Source of the DNA: Deltaproteobacteria bacterium
GTDB lineage: Bacteria; Myxococcota_A; Polyangia; Fen-1088
NCBI GenBank assembly: GCA_033763315.1
Contig: JANRKS010000031.1
Span: 224,001-288,000, forward strand
DNA length: 64,000 nucleotides
Direction: 5' to 3'
Every line of letters starts with the position of its first letter. Within the stretch, counting starts at the first letter, position 1. Positions 28,783-56,953 of this stretch are shown here, piece by piece. Under the pieces are notes generated by a model. That model did not search any database, was not told the origin of the DNA, and was given only the letters and a program-made list of their open reading frames with translations. A program made the translations under genes and the position numbers.

Positions 28783-29007
28783 TTGCGGATGGTGGAGGAA
28801 GAATGGGAAGTCGATGCAAGCACCTCGTCGTCGGGCCTCGTCCCGGGCGTGGCGGAGGGCCGAAAGGCTGTAGCGGCCATCTTGGCGCGAGGCGTTTTGC
28901 GGGTTTTGGCGAAACGCCGTTTGGTCGCAGAGACGACTTGCTTGTCGCCGCCAAGCAAGCCTTGCTTGGACACGGTTAACACTGGAGAGGAGCCCACAAG
29001 TGTCTGA
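28783..29007 (+). CDS. Small hypothetical protein preceding DUF2924
   Basis: AVAAILARGVLR helix; overlaps the next gene. Confidence 0.45.
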   Translation: MRMVEEEWEVDASTSSSGLVPGVAEGRKAVAAILARGVLRVLAKRRLVAETTCLSPPSKPCLDTVNTGEEPTSV

Positions 29008-29488
29008 GTCAATGCTTAACGAAATCAGGGTTTTGTCGAAGATGTCGGTCGCCGACCTGCGCCTTCGGCATGTCGAACTATTCGGCGAGGAATCACGCAG
29101 CCGCAACCGAGACTACCTCTGGAAACGCATTGCCTGGCGTATTCAAGAAGTCGCCGAAGGCGGCCTCGACGAGCGAGTGAAAGCAAAAGCCAGGGAACTG
29201 GCGCGCGACCCTGATTTGCGGGTCACGCAGCCTCGCCCATTGAGGGGAGTAACGGTGGTCGACACGACCAAGGGCACCAACCTCAAAGACGAGCGACTAC
29301 CGGAGCCTGGCACGACTTTGCAGCGAGAGTTTCGCGGCCGTACGTACTCGGTAGCTGTACTGCCGGACGGCTTCGAATACGAAGGCGAGCGCTTCAAGTC
29401 ATTATCTGCCGTTGCGCGCATGATTACCGGGACCCGCTGGAACGGCCTCGCGTTCTTCGGAATCGCCGGTGCCAAGGAGCCTGCCTAA
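29000..29488 (+). CDS. DUF2924 domain protein
   Basis: LWKRIAWRIQE...GGL; PGTTLQREFRG..V.VLPDGFEYEG..FKSLSAVARMITGTRWNG..FFG. Confidence 0.92.
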   Translation: MSESMLNEIRVLSKMSVADLRLRHVELFGEESRSRNRDYLWKRIAWRIQEVAEGGLDERVKAKARELARDPDLRVTQPRPLRGVTVVDTTKGTNLKDERLPEPGTTLQREFRGRTYSVAVLPDGFEYEGERFKSLSAVARMITGTRWNGLAFFGIAGAKEPA

Positions 29489-31089
29489 TGGCATCGAAGG
29501 CTTTAGTCACAACGCCCGCGCGGCGTGTGTGCGCCATTTACACGCGCAAGTCCACTGAGGAGGGACTCGACCAAGAATTCAATACGCTCGACGCCCAGCG
29601 CGAAGCGGGCGAGGCGTACGTACAAAGCCAAAGGACTGAAGGTTGGGAAGTCTCCCCGACTCGCTACGACGATGGCGGTTATACGGGCGCCAACACGGAC
29701 CGCCCAGCGCTACAAAGGCTACTAGCCGACATCCAGCGCGGAATGGTGGATGTAGTTGTGGTCTACAAGATCGACCGGCTTTCACGCAGCTTGCTCGATT
29801 TCGCGAAGCTCATAGAGGTGTTCGACAAGAACAAGGTCTCATTGGTGGCCGTCACGCAGCAGTTCAACACGTCGACCTCGCTTGGGCGCCTGGTGCTCAA
29901 CATCCTGCTGTCCTTCGCTCAATTCGAGCGTGAAATGATAGCTGAACGCACCCGCGATAAGATGCGTGCGGCCCGACGTAAGGGCAAGTGGATAGGCGGC
30001 ACGATGCCGTTCGGTTACGACGTCAAAGACAAGAAGCTCGTCATCAACGACGAAGAGACGCAGAAGGTTAAAGCGCTCTTCGACATGTATCTTGAGCATC
30101 ATTCGGTCCTGAAGCTCGTCGAGCACGCCAATGGCCTTGGTTGGCGCGCGAAGAGCTGGACGACGAAAAAAGGCATCGAGCATCACGGAGGGACCTGGAC
30201 AAAAAGCATGATGGGGCGGCTACTTCGTAACCCGCTTTATATGGGCAAGGTCTCGATCGACGGCGAACTCTTCGACGGCGAGCACGAGGCAATCGTCGAC
30301 GAAACGAAGTTCACGCGGGTGGCGGCGCAGCTCGACGCTGGCCGCAATGGCAGGGACGTGGTGGCCAGGAACCTGCACGGGTTTATGCTGCGGGGCTTGG
30401 TTCGCTGCGTAACCTGCAAAAGCGCCATGATTTCATCGACCGGGCGCTCGAAGGGCAAGGACTATCGCTATTACACGTGCCTCTCCGTCAGGCAAAAGGG
30501 CACGGGCGCTTGCTCGGTGAGAAGCGTGCCTGCCCAAGCGCTCGAGGATTTCGTTGTCGAACGCATACGCGATGTCGCCAAGGCTCCCTCGCTCATCACT
30601 GAGACGGTTGCTGCGGTCGCGGCTGAACGGATGGCCGCGCTGCCTGCGCTGTCTACGGAGCGCAAGCACCTTGAACATGAACGAGCCACCGTTCGGACAG
30701 AGGCGCGCAGCCTCGTCAGCCGACTCGCCAAGGCTGAAGTCAGCGCAGCGACATCGATTACGGAGCGGCTCGCGGAACTCGACCTAAGAACGGCGCAAAT
30801 CGATGCACGCATTGCCGAAGTCGTAAGCCAGATTGCAGCTGCCCACGAAGGTGAGATTGCGCCCGAGACCATCGAGCAAGCGTTGAGCGCCTTTGATGAG
30901 GTTTGGGATGCACTTACCGTAAACGAGCGCGGCCGAGTCATTCGCCTCGTTGCCGAACGCATCGACTTCGACGGAATGGCGGGCACCTTATCGATCGCAT
31001 ATTCGCCGACGGGGCTCGCGCTCTTGCACGAGGAATCGAACAAACCCACCCACACGGGCAAACGTGGCCGTAAGGAGAAAGCAGCATGA
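29488..31089 (+). CDS. Large serine recombinase (integrase)
   Basis: AIYTRKS catalytic Ser, DRPALQRLL, KIDRLSRS, recombinase domain, Zn-ribbon CVTC..YYTC..C, coiled coil. Confidence 0.95.
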   Translation: MASKALVTTPARRVCAIYTRKSTEEGLDQEFNTLDAQREAGEAYVQSQRTEGWEVSPTRYDDGGYTGANTDRPALQRLLADIQRGMVDVVVVYKIDRLSRSLLDFAKLIEVFDKNKVSLVAVTQQFNTSTSLGRLVLNILLSFAQFEREMIAERTRDKMRAARRKGKWIGGTMPFGYDVKDKKLVINDEETQKVKALFDMYLEHHSVLKLVEHANGLGWRAKSWTTKKGIEHHGGTWTKSMMGRLLRNPLYMGKVSIDGELFDGEHEAIVDETKFTRVAAQLDAGRNGRDVVARNLHGFMLRGLVRCVTCKSAMISSTGRSKGKDYRYYTCLSVRQKGTGACSVRSVPAQALEDFVVERIRDVAKAPSLITETVAAVAAERMAALPALSTERKHLEHERATVRTEARSLVSRLAKAEVSAATSITERLAELDLRTAQIDARIAEVVSQIAAAHEGEIAPETIEQALSAFDEVWDALTVNERGRVIRLVAERIDFDGMAGTLSIAYSPTGLALLHEESNKPTHTGKRGRKEKAA

Positions 31090-31586
31090 GCGCAATTCCC
31101 GCCAAGATTACCTACAACTTTCGCCGCAGCCGCGCGCTGAGCAACACAGGCATCGAACTCGTGAATGTCGACGGGGTCAATGAGGACGAAATACGGGAAG
31201 GCTCACTCAACACTTCGTCCATCGCACCCGCAGCACAACCTGCAGGCAAGGTGCCTCGGATAACGCGGATGCTTGCGCTCGCGCACAAGTTCGAGGCCAT
31301 GCTCAAGAGGGGGGAAGTAGAGTCTCTGGCTGACGTCGCGCGGGCCGGTCGCGTGACGCGAGCTCGGCTATCGCAGATCATGGATCTGGTTCTCCTCGCG
31401 CCCGACATTCAGGAGCAGATCATGGGTTTTGAGCGCGTGATGGCCGGCCGCGATCCAGTGACGATGCGTGACGTGCAAGCGCTGGTTCGGTTACCCTACT
31501 GGCCAGAGCAGCGTACCGCGTGGCGCAGGATCCTAGACTGGCGAAGCGCAAAGGCGCCGTTGTTGGCAAGAAAGGCCGGTGGTTGA
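31086..31586 (+). CDS. Recombinase-associated HTH-like protein
   Basis: RITRMLALAH..GEV.SLADVAR.GRVTRARLSQIMDL.LLAPDIQE, a type often found after DUF2924-linked recombinases. Confidence 0.75.
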   Translation: MSAIPAKITYNFRRSRALSNTGIELVNVDGVNEDEIREGSLNTSSIAPAAQPAGKVPRITRMLALAHKFEAMLKRGEVESLADVARAGRVTRARLSQIMDLVLLAPDIQEQIMGFERVMAGRDPVTMRDVQALVRLPYWPEQRTAWRRILDWRSAKAPLLARKAGG

Positions 31587-31721
31587 CCTCCGTCGGCCGT
31601 TCACGCCAAGGCGCGATACGCATCGCAGCGCATGCCCATAGCAGTGAAAGCGCTTTGGCCCTTGAAGGCAGCGATTCTAGAAGGCATCGTCCTTGCGGGT
31701 GCTCCCCCTAAGGATTTGCCT

Positions 31722-31790: not shown

Positions 31791-32477
31791 TCACGAGTCA
31801 GAAAGAGTCTGGGGATCTTGATCGTCAGCGTCTAAATCAGGCACCGCAATGGCGGGTGGGCTTGTCCTCGGATCGCGTGGCGCGCCCTCCTTTTCGGCGG
31901 AACGCAGCGCTCGCTTTGCAATGGCAATCAAGATGGGAATGGACGCGGTCATAAGAGACGCCGTAGCGGGCTCACCCACAGAATCTCCCGCTAGGGCGGT
32001 ACCCACGAGTTTACCGAAGATACCGCGGCGCTTGACGTAAGCCGTGGCCCACCGTTGGGCGATCGCCAATTCGATCTGGTCGGGTTTCATGCTCCGCCGC
32101 CGCTGCCATGACAAGAGCCGCGCTCGGCGTGCAATGAGCTTGCGAAAGAAGGCGCGGAAGACTTTACGCCGTAGCGGCCCTGTGGCCGCCTTTAAGCCCC
32201 GCGCCGCGTATTTGGTAGTGGAAGCCGTCAAAGCCAAAGGATGCGCCCGTAGCGCCACACGCGACGCCCTCGATGCGAGAGCGCGGGACCCGCGCTTGGC
32301 CCTTTTTATGACATTGAGGGCTCCTGCCACTTCCGCAGGACACAGATCGCAATGCTTAGCCGCCCTTTGCAGCGGAACCCCCTGAGCTAGGGCCGTGGAG
32401 AAGCCTTTGAGGTGGGCCCGATAGGCGTAAGGCGCCCCTATAAGCAAGTCGAAAAGGCGATCGTCACTCTTCGCCAT
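31791..32477 (-). CDS. Basic Arg/Ala-rich hypothetical protein (possible virion core protein)
   Basis: AAGGAG RBS; very basic core, hydrophobic C-terminal helix, acidic tail. Confidence 0.6.
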   Translation of the reverse strand: MAKSDDRLFDLLIGAPYAYRAHLKGFSTALAQGVPLQRAAKHCDLCPAEVAGALNVIKRAKRGSRALASRASRVALRAHPLALTASTTKYAARGLKAATGPLRRKVFRAFFRKLIARRARLLSWQRRRSMKPDQIELAIAQRWATAYVKRRGIFGKLVGTALAGDSVGEPATASLMTASIPILIAIAKRALRSAEKEGAPRDPRTSPPAIAVPDLDADDQDPQTLSDS

Positions 32478-33147
32478 CGTTCGCTCCTTGCAAAGCGTCT
32501 GCTGGCTTCCCATCCTCGGCGTGTTGCCCATTCCCAGCCTGTTCAGGTTTGGCTTGCTGGACAGGTGCGGAAACCGGCGCAGGGTTCTTGCGAGGCTGCA
32601 CAGGCCGGAACTTGCCGGTTGCCGGATCGAGCACCTGGCCGAATTCGAGCGAATCGACGCGGCCTTCCTCGAAACGGGCGTCGAGCGCACTACAAAGAGC
32701 TGGCATCAAGTCGTCGACTTGACGAACCTGGCGGCCGAGTACCGTCGCAAGCTGACCAAGCACACGCGGCGGCACAAGGAGGCTGCGGCGCATCTCGTCG
32801 TATTCGGCGCGCAATTGCCAGATTGTGCGCGGCGACTTCTTGGTCGTCATGACGACCTTGGGCAAACTCTTCTTTGCCTCGAAAAGAGCGAATACGGTGG
32901 CGGCGGTTTCGTCATCCGGATCGCCATTTGCACTGGAGCGCTCGGTAAGACCAGCTCTTTGCAAGAGTACCGCGCGCACTTCGTCGGACCTATACTGCCA
33001 AACGCGGCTGCTCGTGCGCGTGGGGTGAAGTTGGTGGCCGTCCATCATGGCCACTTCCTCATCCGAGACGCCGAGAAGGCTCGCGACTTGCGCTCTCGCG
33101 AGCCGTCCTTTGGCCCCGTGGTCTGTTGACTTCGCCGTTTTATTCAT
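32464..33147 (-). CDS. Putative HTH DNA-binding protein
   Basis: LARAQVASLLGVS MerR/excisionase-like HTH plus a second HTH-like segment; GGGAGC RBS. Confidence 0.6.
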   Translation of the reverse strand: MNKTAKSTDHGAKGRLARAQVASLLGVSDEEVAMMDGHQLHPTRTSSRVWQYRSDEVRAVLLQRAGLTERSSANGDPDDETAATVFALFEAKKSLPKVVMTTKKSPRTIWQLRAEYDEMRRSLLVPPRVLGQLATVLGRQVRQVDDLMPALCSALDARFEEGRVDSLEFGQVLDPATGKFRPVQPRKNPAPVSAPVQQAKPEQAGNGQHAEDGKPADALQGANDGEE

Positions 33148-33237: not shown

Positions 33238-34403
33238 AAATCCCGGGAGGATTTGCAGCGAGGCATTTGGCCCTTCGGCCGTGAGTAAATGAAGCGGCAA
33301 CACAAGCACACGCAAGCCGGACGAAAACCAGCAACGTGCCGATTGTTGCTTTCGCGATTGCGCCGAAGACGCCTAAGGGACCGATATGACGGCATAGCGG
33401 TGCGGCAATTTCGCGGTCACAACGTGCCTTTTCTTCAGCACGTGCGGATGCATCGACACGCACCACCAAACACGGAGCCCGTCGCTTTCGTGACAGCGGC
33501 GTCGTCCGCGCCGTTTGGCGGACTTGCGAGCCATTAGGCGGCGACCGTGGGTGAGCAATATCGCTGCGTTTACTGCACGCGCTCGGTCGTTGCACGTACA
33601 GCATGTGGCAGCAGCAAGTCCGCGAAAACACGTCGGGGCATTCGGGCACTCATCGAAAATGGCGTTCTGTAATCCGCGTCTTGCCGGAAAAACTCGCCGC
33701 CACGCTGGCAAGACTCTTTCGGGCCCCGACACTTTGTGAGCAATCGCTGCTGCAGGCGGCAATGCTTGCCTCGGGTCGCAGGCAAAAGCGCTTAAGACCA
33801 TTGAGTGTGGCTACTCGAAATCATCCATCGTAATGACTCAACAGATCCGGGGGATTTGCAGCGATGGGTTGGGCCCCAGCTGCCTTCGAGTGAACCAAAA
33901 GCGCAGACACGAGCACAAGCAAACGGGCCAAAAGCCAGCAACGTGCTGATTCTGGCCGTCGTTGTTTCGCCATAGCCGGCTAAACCGCCGATATGACGGC
34001 ATAGTGACGCGGCAATTGCAGATCACGAGGTGCCTTTTTATCTGCAGGTGCAGACACATCGACGACCAGCACAAACAACAAGCACAACGATTTCGTCATC
34101 GCACCGACTGTCGCCTCGTTTGGCGGACTTAGAAGCGGTTTGGTCGCTTCGTTCGGCGAGCATTGTTGGTCTCTTGACTGCACACGCTTGGTTGTTGCAC
34201 GTGCCGCACGCGGCGGCAGCAAGTCCGCGAAAAGACGTCGAGGCATTCGGGCACTTATCGAAAAATGCGTTTCCGTGACGGGCGTTTTGCCAAAGACGTC
34301 GGGGCCACGCTGGCAAAACTGTTCGGGACCGAGCGCTTTGTGGGCTGTTTCCGCCGCAGGTACAAATTCTCGCCTCGGGTGGCCACCATAAACGCTGCAG
34401 ACG
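33238..34403. repeat. Two tandem diverged non-coding units of about 570 bp (period about 604 bp)
   Basis: Shared collinear blocks: GGATTTGCAGCGA, CCAGCAACGTGC, CCGATATGACGGCATAG, CGTTTGGCGGACTT, GCAGCAAGTCCGCGAAAA, GGCATTCGGGCACT, GCCACGCTGGCAA, GCCTCGGGT. Confidence 0.9.
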
Positions 34404-34642
34404 AATGACTGGGGATGAGCAAGAGCGTCTCCCGCAATAGCTCGACGGGGTGTCCATCTATCTATATGCGAGGGGGGTCGAACATCGCGGAGGGCCGGCG
34501 GGAGGTTCATCGAGAATCGTCGACCATTGTCACCGATCGTTGGCGTCGCGGAAGGCGCTTGCAAAAGCTCCCGGGTTCGGCTCGACAGAACTTGATTGAC
34601 GGTCCACACCTAAATCATGGGCAAGGGGGATGGGAGGTCAAC

Positions 34643-35935
34643 ATGGCAGCGAATGCAAGAGAGAGAATCGATTCGTGGGTAGGGCAGCTCTTGGCGAACA
34701 CACCACAAGCTGAGGGCGTCGCGATAGTGCTGGTTCACGCGGCAGTCGACCAAACGCAAAGGGTCGTCAAATCCTGGCGCCTAGAGGATGCCGTCACGAA
34801 CCTCGAGGCATTGGTCACAGAGATTGACGAAGTTGCCGAGGGGGACGCAGAGGGATTGGGGGGCCGGCAGCGTTACCTCCTTAAGGCGCAAGTGCGTGGC
34901 AAAGACATTGGCAGCATGGCTGTGCGCTACGAGTTGCGTAACGACGGCGGCACGGCGGCGGTAGATAGCGAGCCTGCCACCACGGCAGGCAGCATGGCGC
35001 TTTTGCAGCGGCATGCCGAAGGAGCGATGCGGATGATGGTGCAAAGCTTTGGCGGCGTCATCGAATCCTACAAAGAGCAAGTCAACGCGCAAAAGGCACT
35101 GATCGCGGAGTTCCAAAAGCAGGCAGCCGATAACTTCCGGCTGCAAGAAGAGCTGGCCTCACGCAAGCTCGAACAAGACCTGCTGCTGCAAGAGCGTCAG
35201 ACGCAGCTGCAACTGAGCGCCGCCAAAGAGGCGAACGAGATTCAAAAGAGCCAACTTCTTTGGGGTCACGGCCTAACGACACTTATGAAAATGGCGCCGT
35301 CGTTCTTGTATTACGTTTCGGGTGGCAAGGCTGGTACCCGTCCCGAGGAGTTACTCGACGCAAAGGCGACACCAACGCCCGTAAGTGATCAAATTTCTGA
35401 CGAGCAAGAGCGGCAACTGTTCGGCAACGCTACGGAAGACACCATCGCTGCGTGGAAAGCCGAGCTTGCTCCCGCGCAAGTCGAGTACCTCATGGCACGG
35501 CTCGCCGATTACCGCGCACGCAATCCTGCCGTCGTTTCGTCAAACGGCGACCCGAGCGTTGCCCCCACGCATGCACCACTCCGTAAAGCGGATACCGCGC
35601 TCGCCCAGTTTGCGACCCATCTTTACGAAACGCTCGCCCGCCATAGGCACGTACTGCAACCGTTGGCGATGGCACTCATGGCTCGACAAAATTTCGCGAG
35701 CCTGTCCGAGGACGATGCGCGTCTACTTGGAAAGGTTGCAGCCGACGCTGGAATCGACGGTGTGGCCGAAAGCCAAGGGGGCGAGCGACTATGGATGGCG
35801 CTGCTATCCCAAGAGCTGATGTCGCTTGCTCCCATCGTGACCGGGCTCAACGCCGGAAAGACTTGGTCGGGACTCCCCCAAGGGGACAAGCTGCTGCTCT
35901 TGAAGATGGCACAGCAGGTGGGACAATTGGGCTAG
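34643..35935 (+). CDS. Coiled-coil hypothetical protein with amphipathic/hydrophobic segment
   Basis: GGAGG RBS; Q/E/L-rich heptads followed by LWGHGLTTLMKMAPSFLYYV. Confidence 0.7.
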   Translation: MAANARERIDSWVGQLLANTPQAEGVAIVLVHAAVDQTQRVVKSWRLEDAVTNLEALVTEIDEVAEGDAEGLGGRQRYLLKAQVRGKDIGSMAVRYELRNDGGTAAVDSEPATTAGSMALLQRHAEGAMRMMVQSFGGVIESYKEQVNAQKALIAEFQKQAADNFRLQEELASRKLEQDLLLQERQTQLQLSAAKEANEIQKSQLLWGHGLTTLMKMAPSFLYYVSGGKAGTRPEELLDAKATPTPVSDQISDEQERQLFGNATEDTIAAWKAELAPAQVEYLMARLADYRARNPAVVSSNGDPSVAPTHAPLRKADTALAQFATHLYETLARHRHVLQPLAMALMARQNFASLSEDDARLLGKVAADAGIDGVAESQGGERLWMALLSQELMSLAPIVTGLNAGKTWSGLPQGDKLLLLKMAQQVGQLG

Positions 35936-36422: not shown

Positions 36423-36556
36423 ACTACCGTCGAAGGCTTGAAATATTTTTGACCTAACCGACTGTTTGGATCGTTCAAACGTACGAAGAGCGCATTTGAC
36501 GCCAAAACCTACGCGGCCCTCGTGAGCGCATGACGCCGGCCCGATGGAGGGGCCCT

Positions 36557-37774
36557 ATGTGTAAACGTTGGAAGGCGATGGAATGCGCGTTCGAGCGCAG
36601 TGTTGCTGGTGCGGCGGCTCAGAGTTGGAAGTCGCTCGTAGACGCAGAGCCCGAATTGCTCGGCTACGAAGATGGCAAAGCGCTTCTCAATCATCTTCAT
36701 GGGCAGATGGGATCGGATGCGGAGCGAGATAGAATCTTGTCTGCGCTCGTGCAGGCGTCGCGGGTGCGTAGTCCGAGTGGGCATCTTGCGCGCGATCTGA
36801 TCTGGCTTGCACTATGGCCTGGGTTGACGGCACTGCGGCGCCGTCTTGCAGGTTGGGGCGCGGAAGACGAAGATGAGCTTTCCGCTCAAATAGCAATGAC
36901 GTTCACCGAGGTGCTCGCGCGCCTTGCGCCGACGACGTCGACGAAGGTCGCGGCGACCTTACTTTGGAACACGCGCAAATACGTCTCACGGCTTTTGCAC
37001 GAAAGCGTGGTCGCGCGTGGAACCGAAGTCAGCGTCACCACCGAAAAGATAATGAGTGCCTCGGACACAGCTGGCTGTGACTGGACGGAGTTCATCTCAG
37101 ATCTCGTCGCCCAGGCGGGCCCTGATGCCGAACTCGTCTTGGCTTGCGTCGTCGAGGGACTCACTGTGCGCGAGGCGGCGACACGTTGCCAGTTGCCGGC
37201 CGAAGCCATCAAGAAGCGTATGCAGCGAGTGATGCGGCGGTTGCGCGCGAACGTTTCTGCGAATTTTGCGCAGTCTGATGTCCCTTTTTCCGCAGAAAAA
37301 GAGCTTATAGGAGGTGAAAGACGCAAACGCTTGGGGCCTGACCAACGGGAAGAAGTTGGCGAGCGAGCCCGCGCAGCGCAACCGGAGGCAAGGCATGTGC
37401 TCGAAAAGCAAATGGCTCCCGTCGACAAAGCTCAAGCTCGAAAGACGCGCCCGGCATTACACACGCGTCGTCGGATACGAAGCCACCTTCGCCACCTGCG
37501 GCGCCTGGGAGGTGCATGCAGAGCGCTTAGAAAAACCAAGGACGCAGACGCCATGAAGACGATGACATTACCCGTGGCGGTGTTGGTGGCGCCCGCCAAC
37601 GAGCGAAGTTTGTCGGGCGCCGAGAAGGTGGTGGCCTATTGCGATGTGTGTCGGCGTTGGGGCGAGCGAGGCAGCCTTCACGTTTGCGGCGAGAACTGGA
37701 GCGAACACCTGCTCTCCGTTTTGGCCATCACAGGACAAAGCACAGCAGCACCCACCACGAGGAGGCCCCAATGA
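36557..37774 (+). CDS. Sigma-70 (ECF)-like protein; C-terminal part may be read-through into small genes
   Basis: LIWLALWPGL region and region-4 HTH (VEGLTVREAATRCQLPAEAIKKRMQR); internal RBS/ATG at 37395 and an in-frame ATG at 37553. Confidence 0.6.
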   Translation: MCKRWKAMECAFERSVAGAAAQSWKSLVDAEPELLGYEDGKALLNHLHGQMGSDAERDRILSALVQASRVRSPSGHLARDLIWLALWPGLTALRRRLAGWGAEDEDELSAQIAMTFTEVLARLAPTTSTKVAATLLWNTRKYVSRLLHESVVARGTEVSVTTEKIMSASDTAGCDWTEFISDLVAQAGPDAELVLACVVEGLTVREAATRCQLPAEAIKKRMQRVMRRLRANVSANFAQSDVPFSAEKELIGGERRKRLGPDQREEVGERARAAQPEARHVLEKQMAPVDKAQARKTRPALHTRRRIRSHLRHLRRLGGACRALRKTKDADAMKTMTLPVAVLVAPANERSLSGAEKVVAYCDVCRRWGERGSLHVCGENWSEHLLSVLAITGQSTAAPTTRRPQ

Positions 37775-38142
37775 AGATTCACATCGCCGCTCGCCGCGTT
37801 CTGTTGCCGAAGGCTAGCGCCGTCGCCGAACACCTCGAAGCCGCTGGGCATCGGGTGGTGTCACGCTGGCTTCGTGGTCCTGCCAAGCGCGCGACGCTAG
37901 CGGAGCAAGCCATGGGGGACATGACGGACATCGCGGTCGCCGACTGTCTGGTGCTGATCGGGGAAAAGGCCGACGAGGAAACGGGAGCGCAGCGAGATTG
38001 TGAGCGTTACGTGGAGTTTGGGTACGCGCTCAAGTCAGGAAAACGCCTTTGTGTCTTTGGTCCCCTCGAGACCGCGTTCGGGCACTTAGAGCACGTACAA
38101 CAATATCGCTCGATCCGGGAGCTTCTCGATGGGTTGCGCTAA
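37771..38142 (+). CDS. Nucleoside 2-deoxyribosyltransferase-like protein
   Basis: KIHIAA..GHRVVSRW..D..DI..ADCLV..YVEFGYAL..GK. Confidence 0.7.
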   Translation: MKIHIAARRVLLPKASAVAEHLEAAGHRVVSRWLRGPAKRATLAEQAMGDMTDIAVADCLVLIGEKADEETGAQRDCERYVEFGYALKSGKRLCVFGPLETAFGHLEHVQQYRSIRELLDGLR

Positions 38143-38446
38143 TCGAAAGGGCGCCTTGCCCGACGCCGCTCAAGCGCTGCTTGCCGAGCACGAGGCGAAG
38201 CTCGAGGCTTTGGCAAAGTTATACGTGGGTAAAGTCGAGGCCGTACGGGCGGCGCGGGAAAAGGCCATCGCCACGATTCGCTCGAAGGCGAGTCAAGCGC
38301 TCATCGAGCTCGTCGCGGATTTCGAGAAAGAGCGTTCGATCATGCTGGTGAAGTGTGCGCTCGCATGTGAGGGCGCCCGGGGCGAGCCCGATGCCGCCGC
38401 CGCAGACGGGGTTCCACGCCGTCAACGCAGAACTGGAGCCAACTGA
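38129..38446 (+). CDS. Hypothetical helical protein
   Basis: Coupled ORF with amphipathic helices. Confidence 0.5.
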   Translation: MGCANRKGALPDAAQALLAEHEAKLEALAKLYVGKVEAVRAAREKAIATIRSKASQALIELVADFEKERSIMLVKCALACEGARGEPDAAAADGVPRRQRRTGAN

Positions 38447-41925: not shown

Positions 41926-41936
41926 GAGGACGCACG

Positions 41937-43628: not shown

Positions 43629-43650
43629 CGACGTTGCCGAGGAGACGACC

Positions 43651-45667: not shown

Positions 45668-45704
45668 GCTACCGGCAACCAGACGCACGGGCAAGGAGCA
45701 AGCG

Positions 45705-47993: not shown

Positions 47994-48049
47994 CGTGACG
48001 AGATGAATTTCTTGTGACTGGGCTGGAAAACAAAAGGGGAGGAGCGGAC

Positions 48050-48640
48050 ATGGCAAAAGACATCGCACAACGGGAACTCGATCAAGCAGGCTTTCGCATC
48101 GGCAACCTCGGCAATCCAATCGCCGCAGGAGACGCCACCAAGACCGACAACCAATCTGTGCCGAAGGCAAACGCTGGCAACGGCTCCGCGGGCACGAGCT
48201 TCTTGGCAGCAGCGGCAGATCACGTGCATCCAGCGGGAGGCGACGCGGGAGGCGCAGATGGCTGCGGCTTCATCGACGTGTCGGACCCGAGTTGCCAAGC
48301 GGTCAAAGGGAAGACCGAGGAGATTGTGGCTGAGTTCAACGTGGATTTTGGCGGCCTCAAGTCGCCGCAGATGTTGGTGAGCTTTTGCGCCATCGCGAAA
48401 GCCGCTGGCGGCACCGCGACTTTGAAAGTGAGACTCGGAGGCACTGTGGGCCTGCCGGACGGCAACGTCATCGCCACGGCAACGACCAACGGCGGCACGT
48501 TTTCGCCCGTACAGGGCCAACAGCCCGCGGACAACCCAGGGCAGCCGTCGCTCGTGAAGATCACCGCGGTCACGGATTCAGACGGTGGTGAAGCGTTCCT
48601 ATATGGCAAGACAGTAGAGTTTAGAAAGGCGGCCGCGTAG
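48050..48640 (+). CDS. Fibre/spike-like protein
   Basis: IGNLGNP..GDA and GTSFLAAAADHVHP fibre motifs; C-domain RLGGT.G..DG.V.AT. Confidence 0.6.
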   Translation: MAKDIAQRELDQAGFRIGNLGNPIAAGDATKTDNQSVPKANAGNGSAGTSFLAAAADHVHPAGGDAGGADGCGFIDVSDPSCQAVKGKTEEIVAEFNVDFGGLKSPQMLVSFCAIAKAAGGTATLKVRLGGTVGLPDGNVIATATTNGGTFSPVQGQQPADNPGQPSLVKITAVTDSDGGEAFLYGKTVEFRKAAA

Positions 48641-48642
48641 TC

Positions 48643-49137
48643 ATGTCCGTACGCGACGTCTTACGAAAGCCGCTCGATGCCGGCGGTCACGTGCTCGGCA
48701 ATCTCGGTACACCCGAGACGTCCCGAGATGCAACGTTCACGGACTTGGCTAGTAAACCCAAACCGGTTGCACTTGAGCCTGCACCGGGAACGAGCTTGCT
48801 TGCGGCGCCAGCCGACCACGTGCATTCGAGCCCCACGCCCATGCGCATCCCCGTGGCGGGTTTTGGCATCGTGGGTCCTGGGGCGCGGGTGACGCTCGCC
48901 ACGTTCAAGCGCCTCGATGGGGAGTTGTTCATGCCGGGTGGCTTCGCATTTATCCGGGACGACATCGACGGGGTCACTTGGGAGAACGAAGTCGATGGCG
49001 GCACGAACATCTCCACCTATCACGAACGCACCGCCACCCCGAACGAGCTGCGTTTTCGGCTTCACAACGCGAGCAACAAGTCGTTGACGGTCGAATACGC
49101 GACAGTGGGCTTATCGCTGCCCCGGCAAAACGCGTGA
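48643..49137 (+). CDS. Fibre/spike-like protein, paralogous N-terminus
   Basis: LGNLGTP..RDA and GTSLLAAPADHVHS; different C-domain. Confidence 0.6.
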   Translation: MSVRDVLRKPLDAGGHVLGNLGTPETSRDATFTDLASKPKPVALEPAPGTSLLAAPADHVHSSPTPMRIPVAGFGIVGPGARVTLATFKRLDGELFMPGGFAFIRDDIDGVTWENEVDGGTNISTYHERTATPNELRFRLHNASNKSLTVEYATVGLSLPRQNA

Positions 49138-49555: not shown

Positions 49556-50026
49556 ATGCAAACCGAAGACATTGCGTTGGGTGTGGTCAAGGTGCTTTCG
49601 CCAATCGTGTTGGCGGCCGTGACGTGGGTGACAGCGAAGCTCGGTCAATGGATCAATGCGCGGGTCAAAAACGAATACCTGCGCGGCGTGCTGGCGCGCC
49701 TCGATGACACGGTCTTGTCCGTCGTCCGCGAGGTGCATCAAGTGACCGTGGATGCCCTCAAGGCGTCGACCGTGGATGGCAAGCTGACGCCGGGCGCCCG
49801 TGATGCAGTCAAAGCCGCAGCTATCGGCGCTATAAAATCGCACATTGGCACGAAGGGCCTCTTGGAGTTGGCGCGGGTCCTTGGCATCGATGCCTCCGGC
49901 GTAGAACGCCTCATAGGCACCAAAATCGAGGCCGCTGTGCATGACATCAAGTCCGAGCGACGCGTGCTCAATGGCGTCAATCACGCTGCGCCAGCACTGG
50001 CAGACCTGCCAAATTTTCAGGGTTGA
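49556..50026 (+). CDS. Holin-like protein (LL-H type), paralog 2
   Basis: N-terminal TM, amphipathic helices, KIEAAVHDIK. Confidence 0.7.
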   Translation: MQTEDIALGVVKVLSPIVLAAVTWVTAKLGQWINARVKNEYLRGVLARLDDTVLSVVREVHQVTVDALKASTVDGKLTPGARDAVKAAAIGAIKSHIGTKGLLELARVLGIDASGVERLIGTKIEAAVHDIKSERRVLNGVNHAAPALADLPNFQG

Positions 50027-50544: not shown

Positions 50545-50614
50545 GCGTAAGCGTCAATAGCTTTATGTGGCTTGTGGTTGGTTTGGCTTTTGGTGGACGG
50601 GGCAGGAGGAAAAA

Positions 50615-51469
50615 ATGAACGGTACCGAAAAGGTTGTGGCGAAGGGGCGGTTGGATAAAAAGCGTTTCGTGAGCGATGGGCCCTTGCTCGATTCAGAAGT
50701 GGCAGACGTCATAGACGGCCAGCGGCGCTGGGCCTTGGCGGAAGGTGAAGCGGTCAGCGTTTTGCGCGCGTTGCCAGCGGCATCAATCGATGCCGTAATA
50801 ACGGATCCACCTTATTCGAGTGGCGGCTCGCAATCAGCGGGACGCACGGTTCAACCGCCGAGCAAGAAGTACGGGCTCAGCAACGGAGATGGCCACAAGC
50901 GCCCTGATTTTCACGGCGACAACCGCGATCAACGATCGTTTCTTCGTTGGTGCTCGTTGTGGTTGTCCGAGTGCTTGCGTGCTTCGGCTTCTGGCGCTCC
51001 CGTCGTCGTGTTTACGGATTGGCGGCAGTTGCCGACCGTGACGGATGCACTTCAGATAGCGGGATGGGTGTGGCGAGGCATCGCGGTTTGGGACAAGACT
51101 GAAGGCGCGCGGCCACAGATGGGGCGCTTTCGTTCGCAGTGCGAATATATGGTGTGGGGCACGAATGGGCCTTCAGATAGGGCTATCGACAATGCCGTCG
51201 GTGTTCTGCCGGGATGCTTTCGGCATTTCGTCAAGAAGGTCGATCGGTTCCATGTGACTGGCAAACCGACGCCGCTGATGGAGGACGTGGTCAAGATTTG
51301 CCGGCCCAAAGGCGTGGTGCTCGATCCTTTTGCTGGCAGCGGCACCACACTCGTCGCGGCCTTGGCTCAAGGCCGTCGGGCGATCGGATGCGAGTTGTCA
51401 GACGAATATGCCGAGATCGCTCGTGGCCGTTGCTCAAGCGCTGCCGCGGCGACTTCGACAAAGGTGTAA
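50615..51469 (+). CDS. N4/N6 DNA methyltransferase (beta class)
   Basis: ITDPPY motif IV precedes H..GKP and VLDPFAGSGTT motif I. Confidence 0.93.
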   Translation: MNGTEKVVAKGRLDKKRFVSDGPLLDSEVADVIDGQRRWALAEGEAVSVLRALPAASIDAVITDPPYSSGGSQSAGRTVQPPSKKYGLSNGDGHKRPDFHGDNRDQRSFLRWCSLWLSECLRASASGAPVVVFTDWRQLPTVTDALQIAGWVWRGIAVWDKTEGARPQMGRFRSQCEYMVWGTNGPSDRAIDNAVGVLPGCFRHFVKKVDRFHVTGKPTPLMEDVVKICRPKGVVLDPFAGSGTTLVAALAQGRRAIGCELSDEYAEIARGRCSSAAAATSTKV

Positions 51470-51471
51470 GC

Positions 51472-52269
51472 ATGGGTCGCCCAACGCGTGTCGAAGGAAT
51501 CTTTGCGGACGAAGAGCTGCCCATCGTTCATCCCGATAGAACGATTGGCGATAGCGCCGAACTCGTGCCCGGCAATGCTCCGGGAGATCGAGGACCGGTC
51601 AAGGAGATCCTTCGCACGCGTGGCGGTGACGCCCGCGCTCAGCTTCTCACGGTCACCGTCGTAGGCTCTGGTGTATACGAATCAGATCTGCGAGGAGCAT
51701 CGCTTGCGCCTCGTGGGCCTCTCGTGGGCCTCATCGAATGGGGGGTGGGGGGAGCCAAATCGAAGGCGGAGTTCGACATCCCGTTGGGCGGTGTCGTGTT
51801 TTCGGTCGTCGCGAGCTACGTGCATATCGCGGCTCGTTATGACGGGCTTGTGCTCGTCAACGGCTTGCAACTGGATCCGGTTGCAGTCGGAGGCGCCACG
51901 CCAGGCCCTAAACAACGCGTGGGAGCCATGGTCGGGTACGGCTCCTATGGCGCGACAGGGAAGCTTACGCGAACGATTCGCGTGCCCAGTCTTACAGCCG
52001 AGACCGCCGAAGGCCTCAACATCAGCGATAGGGTCCGTATTCCGCCCTTTGCGCGGCGAATGTCGGTGCTGGGGCTGCAACTTGATCTCACGAGCTACCG
52101 CATTCGCTTCGGTACGTTTAGAGATCCGCACGACGGCGATGTGCTGGTGCCGCTTGGGCAACCGCCGCAAGCCATCGAGCTGCCCGGGGACGGAACCTTC
52201 GTCGAAGTTGAGAACCTCGGCCCGACGGTGCTCAGAAATCCCACGTTCGTCTTTGAACTGAAGGTGTGA
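51472..52269 (+). CDS. Two-domain beta-sandwich protein (possible minor capsid/penton)
   Basis: Beta-strand-rich throughout (IEWGVGG..EFDI, VRIPPFARR, FVEVEN..FVFELKV). Confidence 0.45.
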   Translation: MGRPTRVEGIFADEELPIVHPDRTIGDSAELVPGNAPGDRGPVKEILRTRGGDARAQLLTVTVVGSGVYESDLRGASLAPRGPLVGLIEWGVGGAKSKAEFDIPLGGVVFSVVASYVHIAARYDGLVLVNGLQLDPVAVGGATPGPKQRVGAMVGYGSYGATGKLTRTIRVPSLTAETAEGLNISDRVRIPPFARRMSVLGLQLDLTSYRIRFGTFRDPHDGDVLVPLGQPPQAIELPGDGTFVEVENLGPTVLRNPTFVFELKV

Positions 52270-52284
52270 AAGGGGAGGGGAGCT

Positions 52285-52485
52285 ATGACGGACACAAATC
52301 TCTTGCTAGTCGAGGAAGTGGCTTCCATCTGCCGCACGAGCCCAAGCACCGTGCGCTTTTGGATCAAGACCGGCAGACTGAAAAGCGTTCGTCCCGGACA
52401 CCGCCTACTCGTGGCTGCGGCGGAATTGCACAGATTTCTCGGCTTCCGGGCGGGTCGGAAGAAGCGTCTGAACAAGAGTCGCTGA
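52285..52485 (+). CDS. Excisionase-like HTH protein
   Basis: LLLVEEVASICRTSPSTVRFWIKTGRLKSVRPG. Confidence 0.85.
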   Translation: MTDTNLLLVEEVASICRTSPSTVRFWIKTGRLKSVRPGHRLLVAAAELHRFLGFRAGRKKRLNKSR

Positions 52486-52496
52486 AACGGACTTTC

Positions 52497-54356
52497 ATGA
52501 ATCGTGGGTGGCCATACGACGTCGATGATGGGGCGCCGCTGACCGTGGCACCGGGGCCCGACGACGGGGCAATCGACGCGGGCTATGCCATACGCGATGG
52601 CTGCACGGTTCGGATCGACGTCGACCGCAATGGCGATGAACGCGTCGATGTACTGGCCACTTTTGTGGCCCGCATCGAAGAGGAAATTACCATTGACGAT
52701 GGCGTCGACACCTCACGTATCTTTCGCATCTCCTGTCGTCTCAAAGACGGCACAAGGGTCAAAGACGCTCTCGTGCCCGCGTTGGAATTTGAGGGCTTGT
52801 CGTGGGTACTTCGCAACTGGGGTTTGCGCGCGTTGGTGTTTTCGGGGGGAGGGCGGCGCGACCACTTGCGCACGGCCATCCAGTTGATGTCTTGCACCGC
52901 CGGACGGCGAACCGTCTACACGCACACCGGATGGCGGCAAGAAGGCGACGAATGGATCTACCTCTATCAGGGCGGCGCGGTGGGCATCGAAGGCGTCGAA
53001 GTGCGCCTAGATGGGGCGTTCGAGCGTTTTGCGTTGCCCGCACAGACATTGGAGGTTGAACGCGCAATTGCCGCCTCGTTGAGCTTGCTCGATTGTGGCC
53101 CCTCGGAAGTGACCGTGCCGCTTTTGGCAGCCACGTACGCCGCGCCGTTGTCGTTCATTCTGAATCCAGACTTCGCGGTTTGGGTCGTGGGGCTCACTGG
53201 GAGCCTCAAGAGTGAGCTTGCTTCGTTGGCTCAAAGGCATTTTGGACCGTTTACGCGTAAGACCCTGCCGGGGAGCTGGTCATCGACGTCCAACTCCCTC
53301 GAATCTCTGCTTTCGGTGACGAAGGACATGTTGGCAGTCATCGACGATTTTGCCCCTCAAGCGGACGGGCAGACACAGCGTGAGCAGACCAAACGCGCCG
53401 AAGTCATCCTTCGCAACGTCGGCAACCATGCCGGGCGCGGGCGCCTCAAGCCCGATCTGACTCAACGGCCGGTGCGCCCACCGCGAGCACTTGTCTTGTG
53501 TACGGGCGAAGATCATCCGCCAACTCCCTCCATCGTAGCTCGGCTTGTGCTCGTGCAGGTGGATAGAACAAAGCTCGATTTTGCGGCTGTGTCGCGGACG
53601 CAAGCCGAAGGCGAGCGTCTCCCCCACGCCATGCGTGCTTACGTTGAATGGCTGCGCCCGCGCATTGTCGCGCTTAAAGAATCGCTCCCGCGTGAACTTG
53701 CTGAGCTGATGACCACGACGTTTTCATCCGCCACGCTTGGCGGCCACATGCGGGCCCCGAGCGGTCTTGCCACGTTGTATCTGGGACTGCGCACGTTTGC
53801 CGAGTTTGCTGTCGACAATGGGGTGCTCGAAGGAATGCAGGCTCTAAAGCTCCTTGAGGAGGCGAAGGTGGCACTTATCGCCATCGGCAAACGGCAAGCC
53901 GCCCTCGGCGACCCTGAGGGCACCTCGAATGCTCGAACTGATGCCCACACCGAGTCGCCGAGCCAAAGGTTTATTACGGCTCTTCGGGAACTGTTGGCGG
54001 CTGGGCGCGTGTGGCTTGGGTCGAGCGAAGGCTTGCATGCCTGCGGACCGTCGACCGCTTTCGTCGGTTGGTGCAAGGGCGAGGTCGTTCATTTTTTGCC
54101 AGAGCCCGCCCATCGGGCCGTGACTTCGTATCTGCGTGAATGCCGCCGTCCGTTGGTGCTTTCGTGTTCAAAGCTGGTGGAACTGCTCGTGGCTGAAGGC
54201 TTGGTGCTCGACTCGGACACGGCTCACGGTTTTCTCCAGCAAGTAAATGCCGAACGACGCGTCCTCGTGTTGCCGGCCAAGTTGATCTTGCCTGAGAAGG
54301 GGGGGGCAAAACCGCGGCTGTCGATCGTCGCTTCGCCTCAAAGGTTACCGCGATAG
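52497..54356 (+). CDS. DUF927-like replicative helicase/ATPase
   Basis: VYTHTGW, Walker A GLTGSLKS, Walker B AVIDDF, GRGRL, CTGED. Confidence 0.75.
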   Translation: MNRGWPYDVDDGAPLTVAPGPDDGAIDAGYAIRDGCTVRIDVDRNGDERVDVLATFVARIEEEITIDDGVDTSRIFRISCRLKDGTRVKDALVPALEFEGLSWVLRNWGLRALVFSGGGRRDHLRTAIQLMSCTAGRRTVYTHTGWRQEGDEWIYLYQGGAVGIEGVEVRLDGAFERFALPAQTLEVERAIAASLSLLDCGPSEVTVPLLAATYAAPLSFILNPDFAVWVVGLTGSLKSELASLAQRHFGPFTRKTLPGSWSSTSNSLESLLSVTKDMLAVIDDFAPQADGQTQREQTKRAEVILRNVGNHAGRGRLKPDLTQRPVRPPRALVLCTGEDHPPTPSIVARLVLVQVDRTKLDFAAVSRTQAEGERLPHAMRAYVEWLRPRIVALKESLPRELAELMTTTFSSATLGGHMRAPSGLATLYLGLRTFAEFAVDNGVLEGMQALKLLEEAKVALIAIGKRQAALGDPEGTSNARTDAHTESPSQRFITALRELLAAGRVWLGSSEGLHACGPSTAFVGWCKGEVVHFLPEPAHRAVTSYLRECRRPLVLSCSKLVELLVAEGLVLDSDTAHGFLQQVNAERRVLVLPAKLILPEKGGAKPRLSIVASPQRLPR

Positions 54357-54445
54357 CCGACACACATTCCACGAAGTTCTCGGCACCTTCTGGCGGTGCA
54401 GAAGCGAAAACACGACGGTGAATCCACAAAGAAAAGGAAGGCACC

Positions 54446-54781
54446 ATGGTAGGACGTAGAAACGCTGAGCCACCTGATCTGCAGTTTCAAATAAGGCTGA
54501 GTTCAACGATGGCTGGATCCGTTCGGATGCAGTTCGTACCAAGGCCACCGCTACGATCGTTTTACGGGGTCGAGCGTAAACTGGCCGCTGTGATTTATAC
54601 CTTGGCCGCTGAGTTCGAAAGAAGGTCCGAGAGACTCAATGCCAACTGGGTCGTTGTCGCTGAGCCGAGCAGCAACCAGCTGGTAATTGAGCTCGTGGAT
54701 GGCGATCGATTCGAGTTGGCGCTGCAATTCGTTCAACAAACGTTCGGCGACTTCGCGATCGACCATCTGATCGAGACGTAG
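54446..54781 (+). CDS. Hypothetical protein, paralog of 55243..55569
   Basis: AGSVRMQFVPRPP.R.F.G..LA..IY. Confidence 0.6.
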   Translation: MVGRRNAEPPDLQFQIRLSSTMAGSVRMQFVPRPPLRSFYGVERKLAAVIYTLAAEFERRSERLNANWVVVAEPSSNQLVIELVDGDRFELALQFVQQTFGDFAIDHLIET

Positions 54782-54889
54782 GGAGCGACTGGACTGGACC
54801 TCAGCCGCCGCGAACAAGGCGGACCGTCGAAGAGGTCCCATGGCTCAATTCGAGTAGGACCAAAGACCAATCACAACGGAGGGGCGCAT

Positions 54890-55171
54890 ATGAGAGTGAA
54901 GGAATTGATCGAGATTTTGGAGGATCAAGATCCTAATGCCGAGGTCCTGACCATTTCACAGAAAAGCTGGCCTTTTGAATATGAAGTAGCCGGAGTGACG
55001 GCGAGGCGAGAGGTCAGACGTGCAGAACGCGAAGAAAATGGCGAGGAAGATGACAATGATGCTGCTGACGCAGAGGAGGATCGGAGAGAGCGGACGGCGC
55101 CTACCGACGTATTGATCGTTGAAGGTAAGCAGCTGCGTTATGGCTCGAAGGCTGCGTGGCGGGTGGTTTGA
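54890..55171 (+). CDS. Small acidic hypothetical protein
   Basis: MRVKELIEILEDQDPNAEV; GGAGG RBS. Confidence 0.65.
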   Translation: MRVKELIEILEDQDPNAEVLTISQKSWPFEYEVAGVTARREVRRAEREENGEEDDNDAADAEEDRRERTAPTDVLIVEGKQLRYGSKAAWRVV

Positions 55172-55242
55172 TGCACGACGACCCCTAGCCGCACCTTACC
55201 TGGGCGAAAAGAGGGCCGCTTGAACACAAGAAGGAGGCGTTC

Positions 55243-55569
55243 ATGTCGAATAGAAGGAAGGAATGGCGTGAGTTCGTTGTGGTTGTAGGAAGGACGGAAG
55301 CCGGTAGCGTTCGCCTTAAATTCGTGCCTAAGCCACCGCAGCGAGCATTCGATGGGAACTACCGGCAACTTGCCATCGCCATCTACAAGGTCGCCATCGC
55401 ATGTGAGCAGCTATGTCACGACGTCGATCTCAATTTCGTGATTTCCCCAGAGACGTTCAACAATAGGCTGGATATCGAGGCAAGCGGCAGGGTCAGCGAT
55501 GCGTTGGCGCAGGAGTTTGTGGAAAAGGCAATGTTGCGCGCGGGCCTCGAAAACGTCGTCATCGAATAG
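55243..55569 (+). CDS. Hypothetical protein, paralog of 54446..54781
   Basis: AGSVRLKFVPKPP.R.F.G..LA..IY; AGGAGG RBS. Confidence 0.65.
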   Translation: MSNRRKEWREFVVVVGRTEAGSVRLKFVPKPPQRAFDGNYRQLAIAIYKVAIACEQLCHDVDLNFVISPETFNNRLDIEASGRVSDALAQEFVEKAMLRAGLENVVIE

Positions 55570-55787
55570 GAAATTGCGGCGTGATCCCCCGTTCGGATTC
55601 GCCCTGATGGTGCCACCCTGCGCCGTGACACGCAAAGCGCGGGAACGCTGGGGCCTTTGGGGCAAACAGTGGCGAAAGAGCGCTTTGTTTGTCTTCCGAC
55701 TGGACTGTTCAGAGAAGTGGAGCGACGAATCGTCCAAGGGCGATGGGCGAGGGGAAGGCGAAGTCAGCACCACAACGGAGAACATCC

Positions 55788-56489
55788 ATGTCGAAGAAGA
55801 AGTCTGAAACGAAGAAGCCAAAGATCGTTGCGACGATAAAAACCAAGGTGACCAGCAAGGCCGAATCCAAGCGGCCAACACAGGAGGCTTCGTCCGCCAG
55901 ACCCAAAGTGGTTGCAGAAGCCGAGAGCCCTGCGGCCGCCCTTCCGCAATCTTCCTTGGAACTGGTGAAGCCCGCGAGCAATTTCACTGCACCGCTGCCG
56001 GTTTGGGACGCAACGGCAATGCCGGCACTCGCCCCTGAGAGCGAAGCGTCTGTGGCAAAATCCGATCACGGTGGCGACAGGAAACGTGGCATACCGCGAA
56101 CGGCAGATCCGCGCCTTCCACAAGTCCCCACGACTCTGGTGCGCCACGACCGCCACGGGGTGGTCCTGTGCGAATGCAGCGTGGGGCCAGACGGAATTTT
56201 CTATAAGGGCCAACAGTACGGGTCGCTATCGGGAGCTGCCAGCGCGGCGTCGAAGGATCTAGGTCTAAACCCCGTGGTCAACGGCTATGTATTCTTTGGC
56301 CTAGAGAAGCCCGCCCGCGAGCGCACCAGTGACGTGGAGCGGCTTAAGCGGCTCGGTCAACGATACGAAGAACTATTTGGCGCCATGCTGATGGCGCGTG
56401 CGCCAGAGGCAGCGGGAGATAGCATCAAGGAGGAGATCAAGGCACACAAGGAGCGCCTGCAGAAGATTCTCGCACTGGCGGCGGCGTAG
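55788..56489 (+). CDS. Lys-rich protein with C-terminal DUF2924-like domain
   Basis: DPRLP..TTLVR..G.FYKG..YGSLSGAA..NGYVFFGL resembles the C-half of 29000..29488. Confidence 0.7.
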   Translation: MSKKKSETKKPKIVATIKTKVTSKAESKRPTQEASSARPKVVAEAESPAAALPQSSLELVKPASNFTAPLPVWDATAMPALAPESEASVAKSDHGGDRKRGIPRTADPRLPQVPTTLVRHDRHGVVLCECSVGPDGIFYKGQQYGSLSGAASAASKDLGLNPVVNGYVFFGLEKPARERTSDVERLKRLGQRYEELFGAMLMARAPEAAGDSIKEEIKAHKERLQKILALAAA

Positions 56490-56566
56490 TGGTCGTGCGT
56501 TGAGCCGATACTCTGATCCAAAGAAGGAACGCAGAAATCTGGGCCGCGGCCCCTGCGCTGCCTACG

Positions 56567-56953
56567 ACGGATCCGCGGCTGCCGCAGGTTCCAACAACGC
56601 TCGTGCGGCGCGATCGCCGTGGGGTGGTCCAGTGGGAATACTCGGTGGGCCCTGCAGGGATTTTCTATAATGGCCGCAAGTTCCAGTCGCTTTCGGGGTC
56701 GGCCAGTGCAGCGTCCAAAGACCTGGGTCTCAACCCGGTGGTCAATGGCTACGTATTTTTTCAACTGGCCAAACCCGCACGTGCGAAGCTCGGTGACGTC
56801 GAACGTCAAAGGCGCATAGGTAGTCGATACGAGGAGCAGCTTGGCGCCATGCGTATGGCACGCGCGGGCGAAGAGCCGGACATGGCATAGGCGGAGGAGA
56901 TAGAAGCGCACACGCAACGCCACCGAAAGAGTTTTTCGGTGAACGCGGAGTAG
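56567..56953 (+). pseudogene. Truncated tandem duplicate of the DUF2924-like domain
   Basis: Collinear with about 56100-56489; lacks a start; premature TAG at 56888-56890. Confidence 0.75.

Follow-up and report, generated by a model that had tools for sequence, protein, structure and literature searches.

The DNA analysed here, called the window throughout, is a 64,000-nt stretch of a myxobacterial genome, contig JANRKS010000031.1 (assembly GCA_033763315.1, positions 224,001-288,000, forward strand), and all coordinates below refer to it unless another contig is named. The listing of its open reading frames (ORFs), together with Pfam and PHROG scans, outlines a mostly co-oriented gene block at ~29.0-56.9 kb. 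A preliminary description, made from the sequence alone, had interpreted this block as a temperate, lipid-containing virus with a jelly-roll capsid. As shown below, the interval ~28.8-56.95 kb is a discrete mobile unit that was integrated by a large serine recombinase. We lean towards regarding it as a virus-like element; the protein at the center of that interpretation, F0, is a candidate for its shell.

Boundaries and closest relative

The left end of the element is occupied by a cassette of three genes (here and below, genes of the element are on the forward strand unless the reverse strand is given). These are a DUF2924 protein, the partner of the recombinase (29000-29488; PF11149, E = 1e-43), the large serine recombinase or integrase itself (29488-31089) and a conserved 166-aa ORF without a Pfam match (31086-31586). 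The recombinase contains the set of domains by which large serine recombinases are recognized: Resolvase (2e-39), Recombinase (4e-13) and a zinc ribbon (Zn_ribbon_recom, 2.5e-13). At the other end of the block, a DUF2924-like gene (55689-56489), with a PF11149 match at 2e-4 that falls below the cut-off, is followed by a truncated copy of itself (56564-56947; 66% identity over 128 aa; direct repeat D1), and this pair is the probable right end. The data fit element ends at ~28.8 and 56.95 kb.

The closest relative lies in a metagenome-assembled genome of the Kofleriaceae (G031:C70). On its rebuilt contig it shares ~30 genes with the element, nearly all of them, in the same order and at 31-78% identity. 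Relative to the window, the DUF2924-recombinase-ORF166 cassette of G031 is located at the far end and the DUF2924-like gene at the near end; the G031 map is therefore a circular permutation of that of the window. The cassette genes themselves are well conserved, with 63% identity for the DUF2924 protein (again beside the recombinase), 70% for the recombinase and 50% for the 166-aa ORF, which keeps its position. None of the right-flank window genes that were queried was found in the G031 element.

The left flank (24500-28800) encodes an HDOD protein (25053-26069) and an HTH_31 protein (27433-28329). Its DNA has no match among 30 relatives, including 2 genomes of the same genus; the comparison with an empty site was thus without result, and the neighbourhood itself may therefore be variable. 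To the right of the element, a 318-aa ORF on the reverse strand (57330-58286) weakly matches the DNA polymerase III alpha domain PF07733 (1.6e-6), and complete dnaE-like genes (1273 and 1048 aa) are present elsewhere in the genome, on other contigs. The possibility that this ORF is a host gene split by the insertion was considered and rejected, because only 123 aa align weakly to dnaE and there is no other half at the left end. The DUF2924-like duplicate was likewise rejected as the mark of a split target gene, since the left junction holds no N-terminal piece that matches it.

The conserved core

Loci carrying F0 (39813-40487) were gathered from genomes (15), metagenomes (80) and IMG/VR, and the ORFs of the 47 loci of at least 4 kb were clustered into families. 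Among 401 Myxococcota genomes, the F0 profile identified 4 carriers. F0 is present in 46 of the 47 loci by construction, because the loci were fetched with it. F2, a small Gly-rich hydrophobic protein encoded just 5' of F0 (39186-39716; 74% identical in G031), precedes F0 at a distance of up to 600 nt in 33 of 39 loci, and F3, a candidate transglutaminase-like Cys-His-Asp protease (40571-41212), is found downstream of F0 in 29 of 38. Of the 29 long loci, 19 have F4 and 15 have F8/F32. F4 (34643-35935) is a helical or coiled-coil protein of 430 aa with 19 homologs, its start set by P0082, and has no Pfam, PHROG or PDB match. F32 (51472-52269), a beta-rich protein of 265 aa and the second shell candidate, matches F8 with an hhalign probability of 93% (E = 3e-7), and none of its 38 homologs is named. 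By a similar profile match (F12 HMM, 5.8e-12), F31 of the window (44339-45412; 357 aa with a hydrophobic C-terminal tail) corresponds to F12 of the other loci.

Around this core, the relatives carry anchored proteins with LysM, PG_binding_1, Peptidase_M23 or lysozyme-like domains, as well as glycine-zipper proteins. Their replication modules vary. The window has a DUF927-like helicase; Toprim/DnaG primase, AAA_25 and ~1200-aa P-loop proteins occur among the others, and a protein-primed family B DNA polymerase (PolB; PF03175, with a YCDTDS/YCDTDG motif) is encoded just upstream of F2-F0 in L080 (6825-8681) and L075 (238-1977), with none in the window. A stable module combined with interchangeable replication genes is the pattern of a virus family. 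The L080 contig, 16.7 kb in length, is co-oriented throughout.

Scans of IMG/VR with three profiles returned four contigs. The IMG/VR contig G428 (29,914 bp) is assigned direct terminal repeats by that database, and a repeat of 97 nt was confirmed at its ends; it carries F4, F2, F0, F3, F5, F14 and F32 and is a complete circular relative of 29.9 kb; among the 34 small loci that were fully retrieved, there was no complete circular contig. G429 (49,593 bp, 37% GC; L119, L123-L125) has distant F0 and F3 homologs, separated by three small genes, in a long operon that also encodes two helicases (DnaB-like and SF2) and a methylase. It was considered as a possible tailed phage and rejected: its Terminase_6N match (23.1 bits) is the SF2 helicase, the neighbour is the methylase and a 642-aa ORF has no phage match. 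G430 (194,181 bp) contains three F0-family genes (two of L021, one of L002) along with relatives of F2, F3, F18 and F38.

Properties of the core proteins

F0 begins with a variable, disordered region, consisting of acidic GDD-type repeats in the window and rich in His/Gln in other members, which ends in a basic (poly-Arg) stretch. The conserved domain comprises ~115 aa with ~eight beta-like segments. There is no signal peptide. A word search gave 81 homologs, and the full hidden Markov model (HMM) search gave 3998 clusters at E <= 1e-3, 1958 of them at 1e-10, all unnamed. The ESM Atlas model of F0, with a predicted template-modelling score (pTM) of 0.49, can be called a beta sandwich but not, more specifically, a capsid jelly roll. 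The nearest Atlas clusters are unnamed proteins of 190-196 aa with 80-95% virus labels, at template-modelling (TM) scores of 0.79-0.84. F0 has no Pfam or PHROG match in the window, and 108 members of the family gave no recurrent family with Pfam at E 0.5 or PHROGs at 1e-3; PF12389 was not matched at that Pfam threshold. Profile and sequence searches of the PDB with F0 and with F8/F32 returned chance-level matches only, and tblastn with four F0 members and F3 against 50,697 phage records returned no match.

Judged by its conserved residues, F3 looks like a transglutaminase-type Cys-His-Asp protease. It has an invariant Cys within the motif GDCEDLA..WR..AELR, an invariant His, and an Asp in at least 90% of 30 sequences (C95, H129 and D158, in that order). 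It has no Pfam match, and its weak PDB match is to 4u65_E, a 'putative cystine protease' (E = 0.19), with the Cys aligned. F32 and F8 are beta-rich and contain the motif IEWGxGGA; the Atlas model of F32 is poor, with a predicted local distance difference test score (pLDDT) of 0.51 and all TM scores <0.4. With F4, F5, the first fibre-like protein and the helicase, PDB searches likewise gave chance-level matches only. A hydrophobicity scan identified ~4-6 proteins with one hydrophobic segment, and these, taken with an analogy to PRD1 P7, are a weak hint that a particle might contain lipid.

Other genes of the element

Beside the recombinase cassette, two overlapping regulator-like ORFs on the reverse strand (31791-32690 and 32464-33147, together 31791-33147) are both ~50% identical in G031, and the window copies have no Pfam match. 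The second belongs to F6, a family of helix-turn-helix (HTH) regulators, and the F6 homolog in L005 carries HTH_17/MerR. Between these regulators and F4 lies a tandem duplication of ~605 bp on the reverse strand (33292-34271; direct repeats D3/D4, 74-75% identity, spacing 605-607) with two paralogous putative ORFs (33373-33801 and 33980-34609) that lack Pfam matches. F4 is followed by a protein with a sigma-70 region 4-like HTH (36530-37774; Sigma70_r4_2 at 3.5e-5, below the cut-off; 36% identical in G031) and by three small conserved ORFs spanning 37639-39132 (37639-38142, 38129-38446 and 38446-39132; 36-51% identity to G031 homologs), the last with one hydrophobic segment.

Downstream of F3, the span 41209-43268 encodes F20, which has an N-terminal membrane segment and resembles part of the LysM proteins (hhalign 73%), and F19, a 443-aa protein with basic/acidic low-complexity sequence; both have G031 homologs (39-41% identity). 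A lytic transglycosylase (SLT, 43441-44376; PF01464, 2.3e-11) with a C-terminal membrane anchor (hydrophobic residues 206-224 of the 242-aa form) precedes F31/F12. Next are an N-acetylmuramoyl-L-alanine amidase, or endolysin (45615-46442; Amidase_2 at 7e-14, PHROG endolysin families), and two holin-like paralogs, a (46439-46921; phrog_36209 'holin', 5e-5) and b (49556-50026; phrog_36209, 3e-4; N-terminal hydrophobic segment), which flank three fibre-like paralogs at 46923-49137. The latter (46923-47993, 48014-48640 and 48643-49137) form one BLAST family, F18, are 50-59% identical in G031 and have no Pfam, PHROG or PDB match. An N6/N4 DNA methyltransferase (50567-51469; PF01555, 6.5e-30) and F32 then lead to a DUF927-like primase/helicase (52266-54356; PF06048 at 3e-4, below the cut-off; 65% identical in G031) with the deviant P-loop GLTGSLKS. 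Before the right end there are three small ORFs (54446-55569), two of which (54446-54781 and 55243-55569) are paralogs that both match a single G031 ORF.

Most of the gene content given in the preliminary description is borne out by these matches. The ~28-kb block was said to be bounded by DUF2924/serine recombinase and DUF2924-like genes, and Pfam recognizes both ends, the right one weakly; the amidase, the two holins and the methyltransferase are recovered, as is the helicase through its weak DUF927 match, and the gene set is kept together in G031 and other F0 loci. Of the two membrane-anchored lysozyme-fold proteins proposed, the SLT with its C-terminal anchor stands, and F31/F12, which has no lysozyme match, does not. 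An excisionase had also been listed; no ORF matched such a family, and the nearest candidate is the F6 regulator on the reverse strand.

Searches for hallmark genes

The ~40 ORFs of the element have no match at E <= 0.01 to terminase, portal, HK97 capsid, tail or FtsK/A32 families. The six-frame terminase profile was PF03237, and the remaining terminase families, as well as Pox_A32, were covered by hmmscan of the called ORFs. In six-frame searches, PF03237 had no match in G000, G031 or G428, PF04860 (portal) had none in G000, G428, G031 or G032, and FtsK_SpoIIIE (PF01580) had none inside the element or in G428; PF05065 (capsid) had none in G428, G429 or G430. Terminase_6N and Phage_portal gave no six-frame match anywhere in the host genome (completeness 90.85%), and the only real FtsK of that genome is located outside the window. 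For the relatives, 30 ORFs were scanned one by one and 85 together, and none matched a terminase, portal or capsid family. G428 has no Terminase_6N, Phage_capsid, FtsK or portal match, and a strict Walker A motif is missing from all its ORFs of at least 60 aa.

In the element, the strict Walker A pattern ([GA]xxxxGK[ST]) is absent from the coding frames except for one occurrence in the SLT tail, which is probably fortuitous. The earlier observation that no terminase, portal, HK97, tail or FtsK/A32 gene can be recognized is therefore confirmed with small corrections. One of these concerns the Walker A motif, which had been assigned solely to the helicase; the helicase has only the deviant form. 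The expectation that standard prophage finders would miss such elements is also supported, in that IMG/VR contains almost none of the lineage.

Interpretation

We prefer, by a modest degree, to read the block as a virus-like element, integrated and probably temperate, from a lineage not described so far; it has no tailed-phage or FtsK-type hallmark, and F0 and/or F32 are its shell candidates. The preliminary interpretation as a temperate, lipid-containing jelly-roll virus is partly supported: the integrated, mobile nature of the block, its lysis and fibre genes of viral type, the lack of tailed-phage hallmarks and the conservation of the gene set agree with it, and the jelly-roll capsid and the lipid are conjectural. 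Under a possible mechanism, the conserved block (F2-F0-F3, F4, F32/F8 and F31/F12) would be a particle-forming module; F0, with its beta sandwich and disordered acidic/basic arm, and/or F32 would build the shell, and the F3 protease would trim the F0 arm. The anchored SLT and the fibres would serve entry, and the DNA would be enclosed without a terminase or FtsK-type motor. A bolder version of this proposal is that the elements represent a new high-rank lineage of tailless double-stranded DNA viruses of bacteria, with 15-30 kb genomes, a shell of F0 (its arm cut by F3) alone or with F32/F8, and no P-loop packaging motor; we put this forward tentatively and consider it doubtful. Literature searches yielded no description of such elements, although supplements may list related contigs.

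Several points weigh against a viral identity. The shell role of F0 or F32 is deduced from conservation and position, no test having identified a particle protein, and highly divergent capsid or terminase genes could escape sequence methods. The nearest annotated Atlas neighbours of F0 are TasA/Peptidase_M73, DUF4352, SLH and LPXTG proteins, at TM 0.53-0.63. In some proteins of 350-720 aa (P0101, P0113, P0115, P0135 and P0066), the F0 domain is present in 2-5 tandem copies, which is unusual for a capsid protein and equally compatible with a non-capsid role. The matches behind the holin assignments are weak (E 5e-5 and 3e-4), and the F18 paralogs are presumed to be fibres from motifs familiar from tail fibres. 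For G428, which IMG/VR calls viral, CheckV estimates a completeness of only 31%, a value that fits a genome unlike anything in the CheckV reference set, and its terminal repeat equally fits a plasmid. No att sites were found by the repeat search. No excised or circular form of the window copy was seen in 6 public runs, which carried 5-13% of the sampled words, all as contigs, and no RNA run was listed; from 4 of these runs came short fragments plus a single loose end (28925), too little for a junction or a circle.

Some of the same points can be explained by a non-viral integrative element, plasmid-like or defective, in which F2-F0-F3 makes an envelope or secreted beta-sandwich structure with LapG-like protease processing, the genes for lysis and fibres being carried as cargo or left as remnants. 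Such an element would agree with the TasA/Peptidase_M73, LPXTG and SLH neighbours of F0, with up to five tandem F0 domains, as in surface repeat proteins, with the 'putative cystine protease' as best PDB match of F3, its catalytic Cys aligned, with the terminal-repeat contig and with the absence of any capsid or packaging gene among those found. We nevertheless think it unlikely. F0 lacks a signal peptide and instead starts with a disordered arm, acidic or His-rich, that leads into poly-Arg, the searches found no conjugation ATPase or strict P-loop, and the core travels with protein-primed PolB, endolysins, holin-like genes and anchored transglycosylases. Furthermore, the order of the lysis and fibre genes is kept in the window, G031, L004, L025 and L029, and these genes are therefore not remnants.

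Alternatively, the element could be a highly divergent tailed prophage (Caudoviricetes) whose genes for terminase, portal, HK97 capsid and tail have diverged past recognition. It is prophage-sized and co-oriented, with a lysis cassette, fibre-like genes and many dark proteins, and the Atlas neighbours of F0 are labelled Uroviricota, though often this is a default label. However, the absence of terminase, portal and capsid matches extends from the window ORFs to the two sets of relatives' ORFs and the six-frame searches, and that of the strict Walker A motif (the probably fortuitous one apart) to the complete G428. Coiled coils, low-complexity sequence or glycine zippers characterize the larger ORFs. 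With core proteins or their neighbours as queries, 7 tblastn searches matched no cultured phage, and another query gave methylases only. The sole borderline Terminase_6N match, in the distant G429, is the SF2 helicase mentioned above. A tailed prophage is thus improbable, and the least probable of the alternatives is a phage satellite, with its own fibre, lysis and replication genes and with capsid and packaging borrowed from a helper phage. The element does keep an integrase, regulators, a helicase and a sigma-like HTH protein while lacking capsid and packaging hallmarks, and it resembles the portal-less and terminase-less mini elements described in a 2026 paper (PMC13669383). At 28-30 kb, however, it exceeds most satellites, and a 10-kb conserved block of structural-looking unknown genes would not be expected in one. 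The mini elements, according to that paper, encode an HK97 capsid protein, and none was found here. The 90.85%-complete host genome has no Terminase_6N or Phage_portal match, and therefore no obvious helper.

If the block does build a particle, as the favoured virus-like reading has it, it would reveal a group of bacterial viruses hardly seen by marker-gene detection, with four IMG/VR contigs versus 3998 metagenome clusters of the F0 domain. It would also add a capsid protein family, a packaging route that dispenses with both terminase and FtsK-type ATPase, and a second kind of virus for the Myxococcota, so far known only with tailed phages. Passages of a 2026 preprint on myxobacterial viruses give Caudoviricetes groups only. 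Should the block turn out not to form capsids, the analysis would still define a protein family that is very large, has no name and is linked to mobile elements.

Comparison with known systems

TasA/Peptidase_M73 proteins (camelysin) are the nearest annotated neighbours of the F0 Atlas model, with TM scores by query of 0.55-0.63. These scores are low, PF12389 is absent from the 108 F0 members even at E 0.5, and F0 differs in lacking a signal peptide and in residing on mobile elements. The mini elements of PMC13669383 carry an integrase, an excisionase, a sigma factor/repressor and a helicase/Rep and have no terminase, portal or tail genes, a make-up similar to that of the element. They differ in size (~8.75 kb versus 28 kb), in coming from the human gut and in encoding an encapsulin-like HK97-fold capsid protein with a scaffold, whereas the element has lysis and fibre genes and no HK97 match.

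Portogloboviridae lack a packaging ATPase. The analysis revealed no link to Halopanivirales, nor to Portogloboviridae, of which no sequence was compared. P23-77 (GQ403789; Matshushitaviridae, Halopanivirales) is tailless; its two small capsid proteins are encoded side by side, and it also has a transglycosylase, a virion lysozyme and an endolysin of the amidase type. The element, compared with it by sequence only, likewise has two conserved beta-rich proteins (F0 and F32), an amidase and an SLT. In P23-77, however, the packaging ATPase gene (ORF13) adjoins VP16/VP17, whereas none was found in the element and F0 and F32 are not adjacent. The hhalign probability is <1% for the F0 and F8/F32 profiles against VP16, VP17 and the ATPase.

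PRD1 (AY848689; Tectiviridae) has the P9 packaging ATPase and the double jelly-roll protein P3, whereas the element has no FtsK-type match; hhalign probabilities are again <1%, for the F0 and F8/F32 profiles against P3, P31, P5 and P9. The element is also double the length of PRD1, relies on a serine recombinase for integration and has a DUF927-like helicase for its replication. The two are alike in their compact, co-oriented genomes with a holin, a muramidase, a virion transglycosylase (P7 in PRD1), many small membrane proteins, spike or fibre genes and no tail genes, and the protein-primed family B polymerase of PRD1 has its counterpart in the relatives L080 and L075.

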